The position numbers and the translations under genes were made by a program. This document shows, piece by piece, positions 5,243 to 60,459 of a stretch of DNA of 64,000 nt. Below the pieces are notes generated by a model. That model was not told where the DNA came from, did no database searches, and was given only the letters and a program-made list of their open reading frames with translations. Within the stretch, counting starts at the first letter, position 1. Every line of letters begins with the position of its first letter. Origin of the DNA: Patescibacteria group bacterium (GTDB taxonomy: Bacteria; Patescibacteriota; Patescibacteriia; 2-01-FULL-39-33); NCBI GenBank assembly GCA_041662745.1, contig JBAZRV010000004.1:70315-134314 (forward strand), in the 5' to 3' direction.

Positions 5243-8200
5243 CTATAGTTTGCCGTAGACAAAGCCGGTGCCGGCCGGAATCTTGCGGCCGATGATAATG
5301 TTTTCTTTCGGTCCGGTCAAATCGTCGGTTTTGCCGGTAATGGCGGCATTAATTAACACTTTGGCTGTTTCCTGGAAAGAAGCGGAGGCCAGCCAAGAGC
5401 GAGTGGACAAGGAAACCTTAGTAATGCCCAGAAGCAGCTGTTCGTATTGAGCCAAATTTTTCTTTTGTTTCTTCAGTTCGCTATTGGCGTTAGCGACATC
5501 CACGTATTCCACCACTTCGCCCGGCATAAAGTCGGAATCGCCGGAATCAAGGACATAAACTTTGGAGAACATCTGACGTACGATCACTTCAACATGCTTG
5601 TCGTTTATTTTCTGGCCTTGGCTGGAATAAATATGCTGGATTTCTTTCATGATATATTTCTTGGTGAAATCAGCTTCCTTCAATTTATGCAATTGATGCA
5701 AATCAAGCGGCCCCTCGGTCAACTGATCGCCGGCTTCAACTTTGGAATTATCCTTGACCATGATAGACTTAACCGAAGCCACCAAATATTCTTTAACCCC
5801 CAACTCATTGCCCAACAAAATCAAGGAACGCCCGTCAATCTTAACCGTGCCGGCAAACGGCGCAAAATATTTATTCTCGCCGTTCTCATACAAAACCTGG
5901 CCGTCTTTGACTTCATCGCCGTCCTTAACCTGAAGAACGACTTTCTTGCCTTTGGGTATGTTGATTTTCTTTTCTTTATCCTGATCAAAGGAGATTTCCA
6001 GAATTCTCTCTTTGCCCGAAGTCTTGATAACGGGCTGGCCGTCCTCGCCGATGATTTCGCGTTGGCGCGGTTCTTTGATGCGTACGATGCCGGAAACGTC
6101 AGCGATAATCGCCTTATTTTTCGGCGTGCGAGCCTCAAAGATTTCTTCCACGCGCGGCAAACCTTGCGTGATATCGCTTTCCGAAGCCACACCGCCGGTA
6201 TGGAAAGTTCTCATGGTCAGCTGAGTTCCGGGTTCACCCACGGATTCAGCGGCGATAACGCCTACGGCCACGCCCAGCTCTACCGGTTTATTATAAGCCA
6301 AATCGTAACCATAACATTTGGAGCAGACGCCGCGGACATTCTTACAAGTCATAACCGAACGATAGGTCGCCTCTTCAATCTCCGCCGAACCGATTTTGGC
6401 CGCCACTTCTTCGGTAACCATTTCCCCGGCCTTAGCTACGACTTTTTTGCCGGCGATCAAATCTTTGACCAAATAGCGTCCCAACAAGCGGTTAGCCAGC
6501 TTGTCGCCCATCACCTCGGACTCGGCCTTAGTTACGGTCAAACCGGAAGTATCATGGCAATCTTCGTTGTTAATGACTATATCTTGCGCCACATCCACCA
6601 AGCGGCGAGTCAAATAACCGGCTGAGGAAGTACGCAAAGCCGTATCGGACAAGCCTTTTCTGGCGCCATGGCTGGAAATAAAGAATTCCAAAACATTAAA
6701 ACCGCGTTTAAAATTATTTTTGACCGGCAGCTCAATAACTTCATAATTAGGATTGACCACCGGGCCCTTCATGCCGATCATCTGCGATAATTGTCCCCAG
6801 GAACCGCGGGCGCCCGAATCAATCATGGATAAAATAGAATTGCCTTCGGTCATGCAATGTTTGACCTTCTCCAAAATCTGAGTATTAATGCGCAACCAAT
6901 TCTCCACAATCTTTTCGTGGCGCTCATCCTCAGTCAAAAGGCCCATCATATACTGACCGTCAATCACATCAACTTCTTTATCTCCTTGCGCCACCAATTC
7001 GTCGCGTCCCTCCACATTAACCAAATCGGCAATACCGAAAGATTGGGCGGACAAAGTCAAATATTTGAAACCGGTGTCCTTCATGGCATCTAAAGTCTTG
7101 ACAGTCGCCTCGGGACCGAATTGATAAAGCACATCGGCTAAGATCTTGGACAGATCCTTCTTGCCCACGCGCTTATTGATGAAATCAAACTCTGTCGGCA
7201 AAACCGAATTGAAAATAATGCGTCCGACGGAAGTCTCCAATAATTCTTTCTTGGAACGTTTGTCGGCTTTCCTGGTATATAAAACTTTAATCTTTGACTG
7301 CAAAGAAATAATCTTTTTATCAACGGCCAGAATCGCCTCATCCAAGGAAGAGAAGGCCCGAACCGGCTGACTTTCATCCAGCGTGGTCAGATAATAACAA
7401 CCCCAAACAATATCCTGGTTAGGCGTAACGATCGGCTGGCCGCTGGCCGGCTTCAACAAGTTCTTGGAAGCCAGCATTCTTTCGGACGCTTCTTTGTTGG
7501 CATCCTCGGAAAGCGGCACATGGACGGCCATTTGATCGCCGTCAAAATCAGCGTTGAAGGCGGCGCAAACCAAGGGATGGATTTGAATGGCCAAGCCCTC
7601 AATCAAGATTGGCTTAAACGCCTGAATACCCAAACGATGCAAAGTCGGAGCGCGATTCAATAAAACATGGGCGCCCTTGACCACCTCCTCCAGAATATCC
7701 CAAACCTCATCATGTTTGGCATCAATATAGCGATTGGCGCTTCTGATATTATGCACAACGCCGCGCTCAATCAGTTTGGAAATAATAAACGGCTTAAACA
7801 ATTCCAAAGCCATAATCTTGGGAATACCGCACTGGTCCAAATGCAGCTTGGGACCGACGACGATAACCGAACGGCCGGAATAATCGATGCGTTTGCCCAG
7901 CAAGTTCTGACGGAAACGGCCCTGCTTTCCTTTCAGGATATCAGCCAACGATTTAAGCATGCGTTTCTGGCCGGTAGAAGCCACCACGGTCTTGCCATGG
8001 CGGGCGTTGTTATCAATCAAGGAATCAACCGCTTCCTGCAACATGCGCTTCTCGTTTCTGGTAATAACCTCGGGAGCATTAAGCTCCTGCAACTGTTTCA
8101 AGCGATTGTTGCGGTTAATGACGCGGCGATACAAATCATTCAGATCGGAAGTGGCGAAACGTCCGCCGTCAAGCGGCACCATCGGACGCAAATCCGGCGG

Positions 8201-9130
8201 AATCACCGGAACGGCGGTCAAAACCATCCATTCGGGACGGAGATTATTCTTAATGAGATTATTAAAAAACTTTACGCGGCGGATCAGCTTGTCTTTCTTG
8301 GCGCCAACCGTAGCGGCGATTTGCTTATTCAATTCTTCCACGGTCTTAGCCAAATCAATGCGCGACATCAATTCGCGAATCGCTTCCGCACCGATGCCCG
8401 CTTCAAAAATATGCCCGTACTTCAGAGACAATTCATGAAAAACATGCTCGGAAATAATCTTTAGGGGGCGGATTTCTTTCAATTCATTCTCCGCCATTAA
8501 GACGGTTTCCTCCAATTCTTTCAATTTTTCATCGCGCAGTTTGGTAAAATTTTCCAAAGCCTCGGACTTTTCCGCCTCAGAACTCCCAGCGGCGTTCAGT
8601 TGTCTGGCTTTATTATCATAATCGGACTCAATCTGCTTGCGATATTGCTTGTATTCGCCCCGCAGCTGTTCAAAAGTCTGATTCTTCAAGTCTTCATTAA
8701 CATTGGTGATGATAAAATCGGCAAAATAAATAACTTTCTCCAGATTCTGAATAGACATGTCCAGCGCTAAGCCGATCTTGGACGGAATGCCGCGCAAAAA
8801 CCAAATATGAGAAACCGGCGACGCCAAATCAATATGGCCCATGCGTTCGCGGCGCACCACGGCGCGAGTCACTTCTACGCCGCACTTATCGCAGACAATG
8901 CCTTTATAGCGGATTTTCTTGTATTTGCCGCAATAACATTCCCAGTCCTTAATCGGACCAAAAATACGCTCGCAGAATAAGCCGTCTTTTTCCGGCTTCT
9001 GCGTACGGTAATTAATGGTTTCGGGACGCGTTACCTCGCCGTGCGACCAGGCATGGATATCCTCGGGCGATGCCATTTTTAACCTAATGGAGTCAAAATG
9101 GATGTTGGGCACTTGTTCTTGATTGAACAT
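5243..9130 (-). CDS. rpoC: DNA-directed RNA polymerase subunit beta'
   Basis: The 1295-aa protein has the zinc-binding N-terminus [23 protein letters not shown], the catalytic motif [16 protein letters not shown] and a trigger-loop region. Confidence 0.97.
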
Positions 9131-38260: not shown

Positions 38261-38309
38261 ACCGATCTTGATTTTTTCAAATGACTGTGATAAAATAGTG
38301 AAAGATTTC

Positions 38310-38355
38310 GGGTCGTTAGCTCAACCAGTAGAGCAGTTACCTCTTAAGCAAACGG
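38310..38355 (+). pseudogene. Truncated 5' copy of tRNA-Lys (acceptor 5' strand, D-arm and anticodon arm with CTT), diverged from the intact gene
   Basis: The copy reads GGGTCGTTAGCTCAACCAGTAGAGCAGTTACCTCTTAAGCAAACGG. The intact gene at 38498 reads ...CAGCTGGTAGAGCAGTTGCCTCTTAAGCAAACGG. Confidence 0.7.
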
Positions 38356-38454
38356 GTTGCCGTCTGGGCAACGGGCAGAAGCGAGACGAGCCGAAAGCGA
38401 AGTCGAGCGTTGATGAATGCGACCATAAGGAGCATTCAGTGCTACCCAGGAACG
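38356..38454 (+). ncRNA. Candidate structured RNA element E, copy 1 (99 nt)
   Basis: A 5' hairpin GTTGCC-GTCT-GGGCAAC and a 3' hairpin TGAATGC-GACCATAAGGA-GCATTCA are present. A second copy at 41939-42036 is near-identical and its 5' hairpin carries compensatory changes. Confidence 0.5.
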
Positions 38455-38497
38455 TCAGGTTCAAGAACCTGCGACATTAAATGAAAAGAAAGATTTC

Positions 38498-38570
38498 GGG
38501 TCGTTAGCTCAGCTGGTAGAGCAGTTGCCTCTTAAGCAAACGGTCGCAGGTTCAAATCCTGCACGACCCA
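38498..38570 (+). tRNA. tRNA-Lys (CTT)
   Basis: The cloverleaf is GGGTCGT-TA-GCTCAGCTGGTAGAGC-A-GTTGC-CTCTTAA-GCAA.. / T-arm GCAGGTTCAAATCCTGC / ACGACCC-A. Confidence 0.85.
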
Positions 38571-38623
38571 CTAATGACGGAGGCGCACCAAAAGTGCGTC
38601 TCTAATCGTGTAAGCATCCGCAA

Positions 38624-38949: not shown

Positions 38950-39849
38950 ATGGCTATTTTCTGGATTATCCTTGCTATTTTTGTTCTGATCGTCTTGGTT
39001 TTTGCTTCCGCTTTCACCGTCCAGCAACAAACCGTGGCCGTCATTCAAAGATTCGGCAAATTCAAAAAAATGTCCCATTCCGGACTCAATCTGCGCCTTC
39101 CCCTGATTGACCACATTGCCGGTCATATCAGTTTGCGCATCAACCAATTGGACGTTAAAATTGAAACCAAAACCGAAGACAATGTCTTTGTCCATGTTAC
39201 CGTTTCCGTGCAGTACCAGGTTTTGCCGGAAAAATTGTATGACGCTTTTTATAAATTAATCAACCCTAAAGAGCAGATTTCCTCTTACGTCTTTGATATT
39301 GTCCGCGCTCAAGTTCCGAAACTGAAACTGGACAATGTTTTTGAAAACAAAGATGAGATTGCCAATGCCGTTAACACCGAATTATCGCAAGCCATGTCTG
39401 ACTTCGGCTACCAAATCATCAAATCGTTGGTTACTGATATTGAACCTGACGCCCAAGTCAAAGCGGCCATGAATGAAATCAATTCCGCTCAGCGCCTGCG
39501 CGTCGCCGCCCAGGAAAAAGGCGAGGCGGAAAAAGTTTTGATGGTAAAAAAGGCGGAAGCCGAATCAGAAAGCAAAAAATTGCAAGGCGAGGGCATCGCC
39601 AATCAGCGTCGCGCCATTATCAACGGCCTCAAGGAATCGGTTGACGATTTCCAAAAATCAATCAAAGGATCAACCGCCCATGATGTCATGAATCTGGTAA
39701 TGGTCACTCAATATTTTGACACCCTGAAAGACATCGGCGCCTCTTCCAAGGCCAATGCCGTTTTCATCCCGCACTCTCCGGGAGCGGTTGCCGACTTAAC
39801 GGCGCAAATCCGCGACGCCCTGTTGCAGGCCGACGGAGCCAAACAATAA
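38950..39849 (+). CDS. SPFH/Band 7 (stomatin/prohibitin-like) domain protein
   Basis: The protein has an N-terminal TM helix and an SPFH core (AVIQRFGKF...NLRLPLIDH...). Confidence 0.8.
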   Translation: MAIFWIILAIFVLIVLVFASAFTVQQQTVAVIQRFGKFKKMSHSGLNLRLPLIDHIAGHISLRINQLDVKIETKTEDNVFVHVTVSVQYQVLPEKLYDAFYKLINPKEQISSYVFDIVRAQVPKLKLDNVFENKDEIANAVNTELSQAMSDFGYQIIKSLVTDIEPDAQVKAAMNEINSAQRLRVAAQEKGEAEKVLMVKKAEAESESKKLQGEGIANQRRAIINGLKESVDDFQKSIKGSTAHDVMNLVMVTQYFDTLKDIGASSKANAVFIPHSPGAVADLTAQIRDALLQADGAKQ

Positions 39850-39874
39850 GCTTAACAGTTCCAACCGATAAAAA

Positions 39875-39905
39875 CAGCCCGCTTTAACAGCGGGCTGTTT
39901 TATTG
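39875..39905 (+). terminator. Rho-independent terminator
   Basis: The hairpin CAGCCCGC-TTTAACA-GCGGGCTG is followed by TTTTATT. Confidence 0.75.
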
Positions 39906-39993
39906 ACAAAAAAATCATTTATGATAAGCTGACTGAAGCTTAAAACTCATGAACTTAATGAATTGCAAAAATCAACCGGGGAGGATCAGCCAG

Positions 39994-41514: not shown

Positions 41515-41648
41515 TTTTTTCACCTCTTTTCCGCCTGGTTTAAAATGTACGTTTCTAATTAAACCCGCTTTAAGCTTAATGACCCATTGTACACTTTTCT
41601 CTGAAAAAGTCAACCGCAACAACAAAAACGTAAATTCACCATAATTAG

Positions 41649-41730
41649 TGCCCAAGGTGAGACTCGAACTCACACGGCCTTGCGACCAACAGATTTTAAG
41701 TCTGTCGTGTATACCATTTCACCACTTGGG
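41649..41730 (-). tRNA. tRNA-Leu (TAA)
   Basis: The cloverleaf is GCCCAAG-TG-GTGAAATGGTATACAC-G-ACAGA-CTTAAAA-TCTGT-long variable arm-GAGTTCGAGTCTC-CTTGGGC-A. Confidence 0.85.
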
Positions 41731-41816
41731 CTCACAAAAAAAGAAATTAAGAAAAAAGAAATAAACAGTATCGGTCCTTAATTTCTAATTTCTCAATTTC
41801 TAATTTCTTTCATCTA

Positions 41817-41890
41817 AGCGGCGAAAGGGATTCGAACCCTCGACCTCTTCCTTGGCAAGGAAGCGTTCTAGCCAACTGAACTACCGCCGC
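41817..41890 (-). tRNA. tRNA-Gly (GCC)
   Basis: The cloverleaf is GCGGCGG-TA-GTTCAGTTGGCTAGAAC-G-CTTCC-TTGCCAA-GGAAG-AGGTC-GAGGGTTCGAATCCCTT-TCGCCGC-U. Confidence 0.85.
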
Positions 41891-41938
41891 ACAATAAAAT
41901 ATAAAGTAACTTTTCCGCCACAGAGGTCGACCAAAGGT

Positions 41939-42036
41939 CGTTCCGGGGCAGCGCTGAATGCTCCTGATGGTCGCATTCATCGGCACTCGATTTCGCTTTC
42001 AGCTCATCTCGTTGCTGCCCGTTCAGATTACTGAAC
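41939..42036 (-). ncRNA. Candidate structured RNA element E, copy 2
   Basis: The minus-strand sequence GTTCAG-TAAT-CTGAAC GGGCAGCAACGAGATGAGCTGAAAGCGAAATCGAGTGCCGATGAATGCGACCATCAGGAGCATTCAGCGCTGCCCCGGAACG is collinear with copy 1. Confidence 0.5.
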
Positions 42037-42083
42037 CCTCTTCCTTGGCAAGGAAGCGTTCTAGCCAACTGAACTACCGCCGC
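42037..42083 (-). pseudogene. Truncated 5' copy of tRNA-Gly (47 nt, identical to the intact gene through the anticodon arm)
   Basis: The copy reads GCGGCGGTAGTTCAGTTGGCTAGAACGCTTCCTTGCCAAGGAAGAGG and is fused to element E. Confidence 0.7.
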
Positions 42084-42166
42084 ACAAATACCAATCAAAT
42101 ACGACTAAAACGAACATCGGTATTTTAACAAAAAATATCGCCTAAGTCAAGAGCGCTTTTTATAAC

Positions 42167-60394: not shown

Positions 60395-60459
60395 GAAAAT
60401 CAGACCAATCAATGCCTGTGATTCTGCTTCCAATATCCAAACCACAACAATCAAGACAA

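Follow-up and report, generated by a model that had tools for sequence, protein, structure and literature searches.

In the tyrT operon of Escherichia coli, which we checked on NC_000913, 178-nt repeats lie distal to tRNA-Tyr, and four rtT units in them are recognized by the RtT model (RF00391) at 133–138 bits. Each unit presents an arm in which the 3' side of the T stem and the acceptor 3' strand of tRNA-Tyr recur in inverted form (GGGGAAGGAU..., with 86% complementarity over 22 nt), a three-way junction with CGAGCG-CCAG-CGAGAG as its first hairpin, a purine-rich joiner, and finally a sense copy of tRNA-Tyr from A58 onwards (AAUCCUUCCCCCACCACCA; AAUCC...CCA). A role of RtT in the processing of the tyrT transcript and in the stringent response is cited in 10.1101/2024.07.17.603846. 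An analogy with RtT supplies no mechanism.

Other combinations of tRNA-related and unrelated sequence are also familiar. The tRNA-like domain of tmRNA and the bacterial Y RNA YrlA are tRNA-like modules of other small RNAs, in which tRNA-derived or tRNA-mimicking helices frame a non-tRNA domain. The element described here, termed E, is framed in the same way, but has no match in Rfam, and what its units hold are verbatim copies of the adjacent tRNA instead of a generic mimic. At the DNA level, Williams reportedly described in 2002 how fragments of tRNA genes remain at the ends of integrated elements whose att sites lie in those genes. Finally, group I introns are frequent in the tRNA genes of Patescibacteria (PMC13011429), the phylum in which E is found.

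The window, by which we mean the whole stretch of 64,000 nucleotides that was analysed, contains two copies of E. Each is an RNA of approximately 100 bases, comprised of a variable hairpin, P1, followed by a three-way junction of the helices Pa, Pb and Pc. Both loci share one layout, namely a promoter, the 5' part of a tRNA (Lys or Gly), E, a tail and the intact tRNA. The features of the tRNA-Gly locus (copy 2) are:

42122 to 42150, minus strand: sigma-70-like promoter with extended -10 (TTGACT-17-TAAAAT), a consensus match that would drive the chimera, tRNA-Gly and tRNA-Leu
42037 to 42083, minus strand: partial tRNA-Gly(GCC) duplicate, positions 1-47, 47/47 identical to the intact gene
42021 to 42036, minus strand: hairpin P1 of E copy 2 (GUUCAG-UAAU-CUGAAC), a hypervariable stem, from the single-sequence fold
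41939 to 42020, minus strand: core of E copy 2 (Pa, Pb, Pc), covariance-model match at 41937-42022 with 84.8 bits, fold z-score -4.3
41920 to 41940, minus strand: conserved tail, 100% identical to that of the ortholog L010 although the flanks are unalignable
41891 to 41919, minus strand: AT-rich spacer, beginning with GUGGCGGAAAAGUU
41817 to 41890, minus strand: intact tRNA-Gly(GCC), found by ARAGORN and by the Rfam tRNA model (68.1 bits)
41648 to 41731, minus strand: tRNA-Leu(TAA), downstream in the same presumed operon, an arrangement syntenic in L010, L043 and L044

Those of the tRNA-Lys locus (copy 1) are:

38268 to 38296, plus strand: sigma-70-like promoter with extended -10 (TTGATT-17-TAAAAT), a consensus match upstream of the chimera
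38310 to 38355, plus strand: partial tRNA-Lys(CTT) duplicate, positions 1-46, with 3 mismatches against the intact gene
38356 to 38454, plus strand: E copy 1, with P1 (GUUGCC-GUCUG-GGCAAC) at 38356-38372 and the core at 38373-38454
38455 to 38480, plus strand: decayed 3' part of tRNA-Lys, a T-arm-like hairpin CAGGUUCAAGAACCUG plus GCGACAU
38498 to 38571, plus strand: intact tRNA-Lys(CTT), found by ARAGORN and by the Rfam tRNA model

The first-pass annotation had read the minus strand at the tRNA-Gly locus as the first 47 nt of tRNA-Gly (42083-42037) fused to E from 42036 onwards, then a 48-nt AT-rich spacer and the intact tRNA-Gly (41890-41817), and had called copy 1 collinear with copy 2. The coordinates, the fusion and the collinearity were all borne out. 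The window holds exactly two occurrences of each of two conserved blocks (28 and 38 nt), where shuffles predict 0, and a covariance model built from 21 cores finds two copies within the window (84.8 bits, and 79.8 bits at 38371-38456 for copy 1) and no third. The spacer had to be divided: 41919-41891 is indeed AT-rich, but the first ~20 nt (41940-41920) are GC-rich, identical to L010, and contain a 9-nt antisense match to tRNA-Gly. The fusion of copy 1 to a tRNA fragment, the large tRNA-linked family, the tRNA-antisense arms of most units and the RtT layout of one type of unit go beyond that annotation.

The tRNA-Gly duplicate covers the acceptor 5' strand, the D arm and the anticodon arm, up to the variable loop. 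In the core that follows, Pa is GGGCAG(C)/(G)CUGCCC, Pb has the base CGAGAU/AUCGAG, tandem G.A pairs and a GAAA loop, Pc is CGAUGAAUGC-GACCAUCAGGA-GCAUUCAGCG, and the 3' end is CGGAACG. The tail holds a small hairpin, CGACC-UUU-GGUCG, and an arm, UCGACCUCU (41930-41922), exactly complementary to tRNA-Gly 43-51 (AGAGG|UCGA), a stretch that includes the insertion point 47/48; in L010 a part of the tail falls within an 83-nt direct repeat. We considered whether this tail could be a decayed T arm plus acceptor, and set the idea aside, as the acceptor pairing (6/7) is not kept in L010. The GUGGCGGAAAAGUU at the start of the spacer may be a decayed copy of the tRNA 5' end. At the tRNA-Lys locus, the 10 nt preceding the duplicate (GAAAGATTTC) are duplicated too. 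Within the decayed 3' part, GAACCUGCGAC (38465-38475) matches tRNA-Lys 46-56 in antisense orientation, but the self-complementarity of the T arm makes sense and antisense indistinguishable for this stretch. ARAGORN calls neither chimera as a tRNA, and the tRNA-Gly chimera scores below the gathering score of the Rfam tRNA model (RF00005), with 27.7 bits against 29 at 42013-42083, P1 serving as a pseudo T arm.

E is a genuinely structured RNA. RNAalifold derived from the core alignment of 21 sequences a consensus with Pa as SGGCAG/CUGCCS, Pb with the base helix CGAGAY/RUCGAG, tandem G.A pairs and a distal part of variable length, and Pc as a 10-bp stem with one A.G mismatch, (C/A)GAUGAAUGC...GCAUUCAGC(G/U). 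In a model-based alignment of 23 distinct copies, 98.2% of cells hold standard pairs, two-sided changes are seen in 8 of the 19 pairs, and the covariation score of 0.220 exceeds that of shuffles (0.084; 0/500 reach 0.220) and that obtained when partners are slid (at most 0.026). That Pc is invariant is in part a matter of ascertainment, because the scan pattern was derived from Pc, and diverged copies found by the model carry another hairpin in its place (L016 499-584; L041 8618-8715). The tRNA-bearing strand folds better in 22/24 cores, G.U pairs outnumber A.C pairs in the cores by 6 to 3, and the loops are of the GNRA type. In the single-sequence folds of both window copies the P1 hairpin is followed by the three-way junction.

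These results bear out the earlier proposal that E acts at the RNA level, which now rests on covariation of Pa, Pb and Pc across the family, at least 5 compensatory pairs relative to L010, the GNRA-type loops and the folding bias towards the tRNA strand; the covariation persisted once homologs were added. The sign of RNA selection offered at the time was the exchange of both strands of the P1 stem between the two copies. The stems do differ fully, but this is weak evidence, as the window copies are non-orthologous and P1 is hypervariable across the family. An open frame through both copies had also been noted. Both open reading frames exist, yet across 24 homologs none of the frames stays open or is conserved, and the Pc loop contains a frame-shifting 1-nt indel, so that the preference for RNA over peptide conservation stood and a peptide-coding reading was discarded. 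We also rejected a guide role for P1: in the window its 5' strands recur as 6-mers of the cognate tRNAs, GTTGCC within the anticodon stem of tRNA-Lys and GTTCAG within the D arm of tRNA-Gly, but the identity is absent in L010 and was dropped as chance.

No Rfam 15 family matches E at gathering or permissive thresholds (E-value up to 10) in the window region or in 25 loci, where tRNAs alone were found, and a literature search turned up nothing describing the element. The family thus appears to be unannotated, and its leader-borne mirror layout seems to be undescribed. Comparison by eye with hammerhead, C/D-box, HDV-like, tmRNA, SRP and RNase P RNAs gave short similarities, such as UAGAUGAAUG to RNase P J18/2 and GGAUUCGA/GACGCGG to tmRNA ends, and all these candidates were put aside as lacking covariance-model or structural support.

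Conserved-hairpin scans, one of genomes and one of metagenomes, gave 40 loci, which are Patescibacteria-like; the PilT protein of the window is identical to one from a Patescibacteria MAG. Of 46 hairpin matches, 27 have a tRNA on the same strand within about 200 nt. The first-pass annotation had recommended a search of metagenomic relatives for E beside other tRNA identities; more than 10 identities are represented, including Pro, Gln, Leu, Ala, Met, Glu, Arg, Ser, Tyr and Val besides Lys and Gly. Two types of unit can be distinguished. 1) The upstream type, to which both window copies belong, is also seen at tRNA-Gly (L010/L017), tRNA-Ala (L004/14/27/35) and tRNA-Lys (L016); it consists of a direct repeat of the upstream flank and the tRNA 5' part, ending at the D or variable loop, then E and the intact tRNA. 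2) The downstream type, which forms the majority, begins with the intact tRNA, a short flank (usually a terminator-like hairpin), a 10-20 nt antisense arm and the E core, and continues with a purine-rich joiner (AGGACAAGGAG), one more hairpin and a sense-oriented copy of the tRNA stretch between about A58 and the 3' end. Units ending in such a 3' copy are L001, L007, L019, L023, L026, L029, L031, L033, L039 and L043; the tRNA 3' flank, including the terminator-like hairpin, is often copied as well. The inferred insertion points all lie in tRNA loops (D loop 20/21, variable loop 47/48, T loop 56/57), and the last base of E is usually G (GGAACG|, GCGG|). Tandem units occur in L029 (77-nt repeat), L033, L003, L018 and L002, the window loci having one unit each, and two contigs of about 290 kb hold at least 3 copies each. 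In L002 and L040 the copies are devoid of tRNA parts, and units with tRNA-Pro arms are present at a distance from any tRNA (L008, L036 copy 2). Assemblies break at E loci.

Relatives share the gene order L32-NusB-RNase III-PilT-tRNA-Gly-tRNA-Leu. When the window is compared with its ortholog L010, PilT is 74.5% identical, four-fold degenerate sites are 43% identical and hence essentially saturated, and the upstream intergenic DNA is unalignable. E plus tail is nevertheless about 86% identical, with the 21-nt tail unchanged and the compensatory pairs distributed over the helices: in P1 an A-U pair became G-C (GUUCGG-UAAA-CCGAAC in L010), in Pa two G-C pairs became A-U, and at the base of Pb G-C changed to A-U and U-A to C-G. 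Judged by this comparison, E at tRNA-Gly is under strong purifying selection for its RNA fold. At the same time its presence is patchy: it is absent at the same tRNA-Gly in L041, L043, L044 and L046/47, and at tRNA-Lys in L010 and L044, and in L016 it occupies a different position of the tRNA-Lys copy, the D loop instead of the variable loop. In L014 E interrupts a tRNA-Ala copy cut off at position 37, and the junction of the tandem duplication is a microhomology, CGTTT(T)GCAT, common to the anticodon loop and the promoter region, which suggests that the duplications arise by tandem duplication at microhomologies.

Such a distribution invites the view that E is a mobile DNA element or its scar, i.e. 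a miniature integrative element or transposon end targeting tRNA genes, with the tRNA fragments as att-type or target duplications and the hairpins as recombinase sites in single-stranded DNA. As at att scars, a partial tRNA copy forms a direct repeat beside the intact gene and the breakpoints cluster in the T loop; the direct repeats that flank E, of 20-83 nt, include non-tRNA flank, and tandem arrays, presence/absence polymorphism, several copies per genome and the assembly breaks fit the same view. Unlike att scars, E loci show 5'-part duplications and repeats that include promoter or terminator flank, and what lies between the repeats is 90-250 nt long and contains an antisense arm and a conserved RNA fold. 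Among the 35 loci whose open reading frames within 4 kb were clustered, no integrase, recombinase, transposase or island remnant was found, nor any recurrent protein gene beyond local synteny. The repeats vary in length, as expected of ordinary tandem duplication and as the L014 junction illustrates. P1 differs between copies in one genome and is thus no common protein site, and the GNRA loops, tandem G.A motifs and strand asymmetry favour RNA. A phage or viral origin was likewise rejected, as neither a strict nor a loose pattern found a copy in 2.9 million viral contigs of IMG/VR. Given the RNA-like fold, the absence of a nearby recombinase and the purifying selection on the tRNA-Gly copy across saturated divergence, we regard mobility at the DNA level as the least likely reading, and a very improbable one.

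The downstream-type units bear a close likeness to RtT. Both stand on the same strand just after a tRNA and can be tandemly repeated; the succession of arm, three-way junction, purine-rich joiner and tRNA 3' end from A58 is the same; the Rfam RtT consensus topology, a terminal helix enclosing a three-way junction, matches the folds of downstream-type units; and the first rtT hairpin almost equals the minimal Pb of L002 (CGAGCG-AAG-CGAGAG). In minimum free energy folds of 12 downstream-type units the arm pairs with the tRNA fragment around Pa, Pb and Pc, and in copy 2 the equivalent of the RtT terminal helix would be AGAGG/CCUCU. However, the conserved hairpin Pc has no RtT counterpart, the T-loop portion of the RtT arm contains an interruption while the arms of E match perfectly through G53, and RtT belongs to Enterobacteria. 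Neither the window region nor any of 25 loci matches the RtT model (45-bit gathering threshold), even when E-values up to 10 are admitted, and the E model, with filters off, reaches 5 bits on the rtT locus (E-value 1.2). Neither covariance model detects the other family, and homology being thus not demonstrable, RtT is the closest analogue in design and not the same family. The window copies differ further. RtT units are distal to the tRNA and copy its 3' end, whereas these lie upstream, carry the tRNA 5' part and follow a mirror order (tRNA 5' part, E, arm) that is undescribed for RtT.

We give roughly even odds to E being an RtT-like passenger RNA of tRNA operons that forms the core of the unit and possibly pairs with its own tRNA. 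E is a self-contained folded domain (P1 plus Pa, Pb and Pc) inside a partial duplicate of the neighbouring tRNA gene, and both window copies sit in such a duplicate at position 46-47/48, in the variable loop. One promoter-like site lies upstream of each window chimera and none between chimera and intact tRNA at either locus, so that E is probably part of the tRNA 5' leader. As the tRNA copy keeps the promoter and 5' part of the tRNA, the chimera would be transcribed as the 5' leader of the real tRNA, in a predicted Lys(-Arg) transcript for copy 1 and a Gly-Leu transcript for copy 2; most relatives show the mirror layout, with E downstream and ending in a copy of the tRNA 3' part. In most units, copy 2 included, E is clamped between the sense fragment and an arm that is complementary to the intact tRNA on both sides of the junction. 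The tRNA-processing machinery may excise the chimera from the precursor, RNase P cutting at the 5' end of the real tRNA and so defining the chimera's 3' end, and the product would be a stable small RNA whose arm could pair with the tRNA fragment in cis or with the cognate (pre-)tRNA. Against the passenger reading stand the lack of demonstrable homology to RtT, the upstream position of the window chimeras, the copies that carry no tRNA parts, and certain properties of the arms.

A downstream antisense match of at least 10 nt is present in 13/69 distinct tRNA loci and an upstream match of at least 9 nt in 4/69, among them both window copies; the reversed-sequence control gave 0 in each case. Arms of 9-20 nt cross the junction in 17 loci against 0 in controls, a count that describes pairing potential. 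Since a sense fragment and an antisense arm flank E in most units, the common design is fragment-E-arm or its mirror. In the downstream type the arm is exactly antisense to tRNA positions from about 53-66, up to 72, and the arms follow unusual T loops (UCCGAUU in L021, UUCAAAU in L016, UUCGAUU in L043). They also cover T-loop positions 53-57, which are missing from the unit's own tRNA fragment, and in L033, L008 and L019 they fit the real tRNA better than that fragment; in L006/L021 a 20-nt arm has no sense fragment beside it. The arms are thus longer than a closing helix requires, which makes direct contact with the cognate tRNA a live possibility; this excess length, together with the L006/L021 arms, points to pairing with the real tRNA, for which a passive passenger would have no need. 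The core is not always kept: at L043 8106-8200 perfect arms are retained and the core is deleted, and the leaders of L046/47, without E, have a 9-nt antisense match to their own, different, tRNA-Gly. The anatomy of E, the selection at the RNA level, the tRNA linkage, the arms, and a patchy presence combined with long-term conservation at a single locus are established, whatever use is made of them.

One use would be regulation in cis, with E as a leader or trailer whose arm pairs either with the decoy fragment, harmlessly, or with the adjacent real tRNA, whose folding or maturation it would block, the folded domain, possibly ligand- or protein-binding, setting the balance. This agrees with the place of E on the strand of the cognate tRNA, usually adjacent to it, with the predicted sharing of the tRNA promoter in the window, with the strong purifying selection on the tail and with the antisense match in the E-less leaders of L046/47; mutually exclusive pairings are possible, and in the minimum free energy fold of the entire precursor the 5' part of the decoy is joined to the 3' part of the real tRNA. 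Such alternative folds, though, follow trivially from direct repeats of self-complementary sequence, no motif of a ligand class was recognised, and the tRNA-Pro-arm units far from tRNAs, the armless units and the close relatives without E at the same tRNA are hard to reconcile with a regulatory duty. We consider this account rather unlikely.

Another use would be catalysis or guidance, E being a guide-bearing intron-like ribozyme or RNP RNA acting on the cognate tRNA, with the arm comparable to the internal guide of a group I intron and the sense fragment serving as an exon for trans-splicing or replacement, or with cleavage as the outcome. Across the junction the arms complement the uninterrupted tRNA exactly, a contiguous guide pairing with both sides much as P1 plus P10 do in group I introns. 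The downstream-type unit starts with the arm and ends with a '3' exon', so that its order of guide, folded core, G and '3' exon' resembles that of an engineered trans-splicing group I ribozyme (IGS, ribozyme, 3' exon), and the upstream type is its mirror image. The better match of some arms to the real tRNA, the loop location of all three inferred insertion points, the terminal G, the multi-copy, patchy occurrence and a candidate pseudoknot spotted by eye (GCGU/ACGC) would all fit. Yet no match to the group I model (RF00028, E-value up to 10) or to any other ribozyme family was obtained, and known group I introns lie in the anticodon loop and exceed 200 nt, whereas the E core of about 100 nt has no recognisable G-binding P7, the lone P7-like candidate pairing shifting register between variants. 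The arms form Watson-Crick pairs alone with the T or variable loop, there is no U.G wobble at the putative 5' splice site, and the 5' flanks end in GG and not in U; the 5' exon is not contiguous, and in the window copies the guide is at the 3' end. The pseudoknot, GCGU(C)/(G)ACGC in downstream-type units, was rejected as well, for the variant CGCC/GGCG pairs in another register, which leaves no clean covariation. E was never found interrupting the sole copy of a tRNA, and the perfect arms of L043 persist without a core. A ribozyme or RNP of this kind is, in our estimate, about as unlikely as regulation in cis.

A wider form of the same idea would make the E units, and by extension RtT in E. 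coli, programmable RNAs directed at tRNAs, in which a 9-20 nt guide aims the core at the exposed loop of one tRNA; we hold it to be just as doubtful. Here the core would be catalytic or protein-binding, and the spare tRNA part would allow exchange, repair or cleavage. If true, this would amount to a natural trans-splicing or RNA-recombination system, or to an RNA-guided tRNA-targeting RNP, in ultra-small bacteria.

On the practical side, E loci create partial tRNA duplicates, which lead to assembly breaks and possibly to confusion in tRNA annotation. With respect to the biology of these organisms, the tiny, densely coded genomes of Patescibacteria still hold multiple copies of E, and at one locus E is kept under tRNA-like purifying selection. 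The family represents a distant structural counterpart, in many independent instances, to the 40-year-old puzzle of RtT in E. coli, and these many instances make the shared design of antisense arm, three-way junction and spare tRNA piece testable. If the arms are indeed used, E would be the first bacterial RNA family to single out individual tRNAs via base pairing.

The arm that accompanies E, the ~100-nt structured RNA of tRNA operons, and the tRNA fragments beside it were also encountered in reduced or divergent settings. Among the leader copies of tRNAs, two cases are pertinent:

L046/L047 (loci of relatives), about 7045-7150: tRNA-Gly leaders without E.
L041 (a further relative), 8380-8500: pseudo-tRNA start (GGGCGCCCATA) upstream of tRNA-Lys.

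The former retain CCGGCGACC, the antisense of positions 46-54 of their own tRNA-Gly, after which comes a decayed version of the tRNA's 5' end; relative to the window, arm and tRNA sequence co-vary. In the latter, the pseudo-tRNA start is split at position ~9/10 by a GC-rich hairpin of 39 nt, whose sequence recurs as the distal Pb of unit L003b, and D-arm-like sequence comes thereafter; this locus is a further kind of insertion into a leader tRNA copy.

A comparable arm was recovered from the repeats distal to tRNA-Tyr in the E. coli tyrT operon:

L049 (E. coli NC_000913 1286000-1288000), 1640-690, minus strand: rtT repeats.

Each repeat begins with an arm in which the 3' strands of the tRNA-Tyr T-stem and acceptor are copied in inverted orientation; with 8 nt (GAGAAGCU) taken out, this arm is an almost exact antisense of tRNA-Tyr 53-70, with one mismatch. 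To our knowledge, this antisense relation has not previously been mentioned for RtT.

The spacers separating tRNA-Arg(TCT) from tRNA-Arg(CCG) supplied one further example and a possible second:

L043 (a locus of a relative), 8106-8200: minimal unit between the two tRNAs.
Window 60395-60458, minus strand: the corresponding 64-nt spacer.

In the L043 unit the arm is perfect over 15 nt and the sense 3' fragment measures 17 nt, but the Pa/Pb/Pc core has shrunk to GGTC|GCTGACC. Either this unit arose by a recent deletion, or it signals that arm and fragment are preserved irrespective of the core. Judging by a comparison of GCAGAATC with the expected arm GCAAGAATCGAAC, the window spacer may harbor a decayed remnant of the L043 unit.

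Several public assemblies stop within the tRNA/E repeat region directly downstream of the protein gene PilT:

L045-L048: contig ends 130-360 nt past PilT.

These breaks seem to be caused by the partial tRNA duplications of the region. Neighboring genes include:

L016 (a relative), 1290-720, minus strand: two small ORFs inserted between tRNA-Lys and tRNA-Arg(TCG).
L041, 12755-13120: gene with bAvd / 23S_rRNA_IVP Pfam matches, ~4 kb from the tRNA/E cluster.

The former, missing from the window, are possibly a toxin-antitoxin pair, and the latter may serve a diversity-generating retroelement as an accessory gene. Weak leader-like or sRNA-like Rfam matches on both strands of window 39816-39980, between two convergent-looking ORFs, probably mark a bidirectional terminator hairpin.

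The Pc hairpin UGAAnGCGACCAnnAGGAGCnUUCA was also observed in other architectures that lack the Pa/Pb core (L005, L009, L011, L015, L022, L028, L032, L034 and L038), several of which once more have tRNA 3' duplications and short antisense segments on their flanks. Some of these loci lie on GC-rich contigs, perhaps outside Patescibacteria, and Pc may be an independent module.
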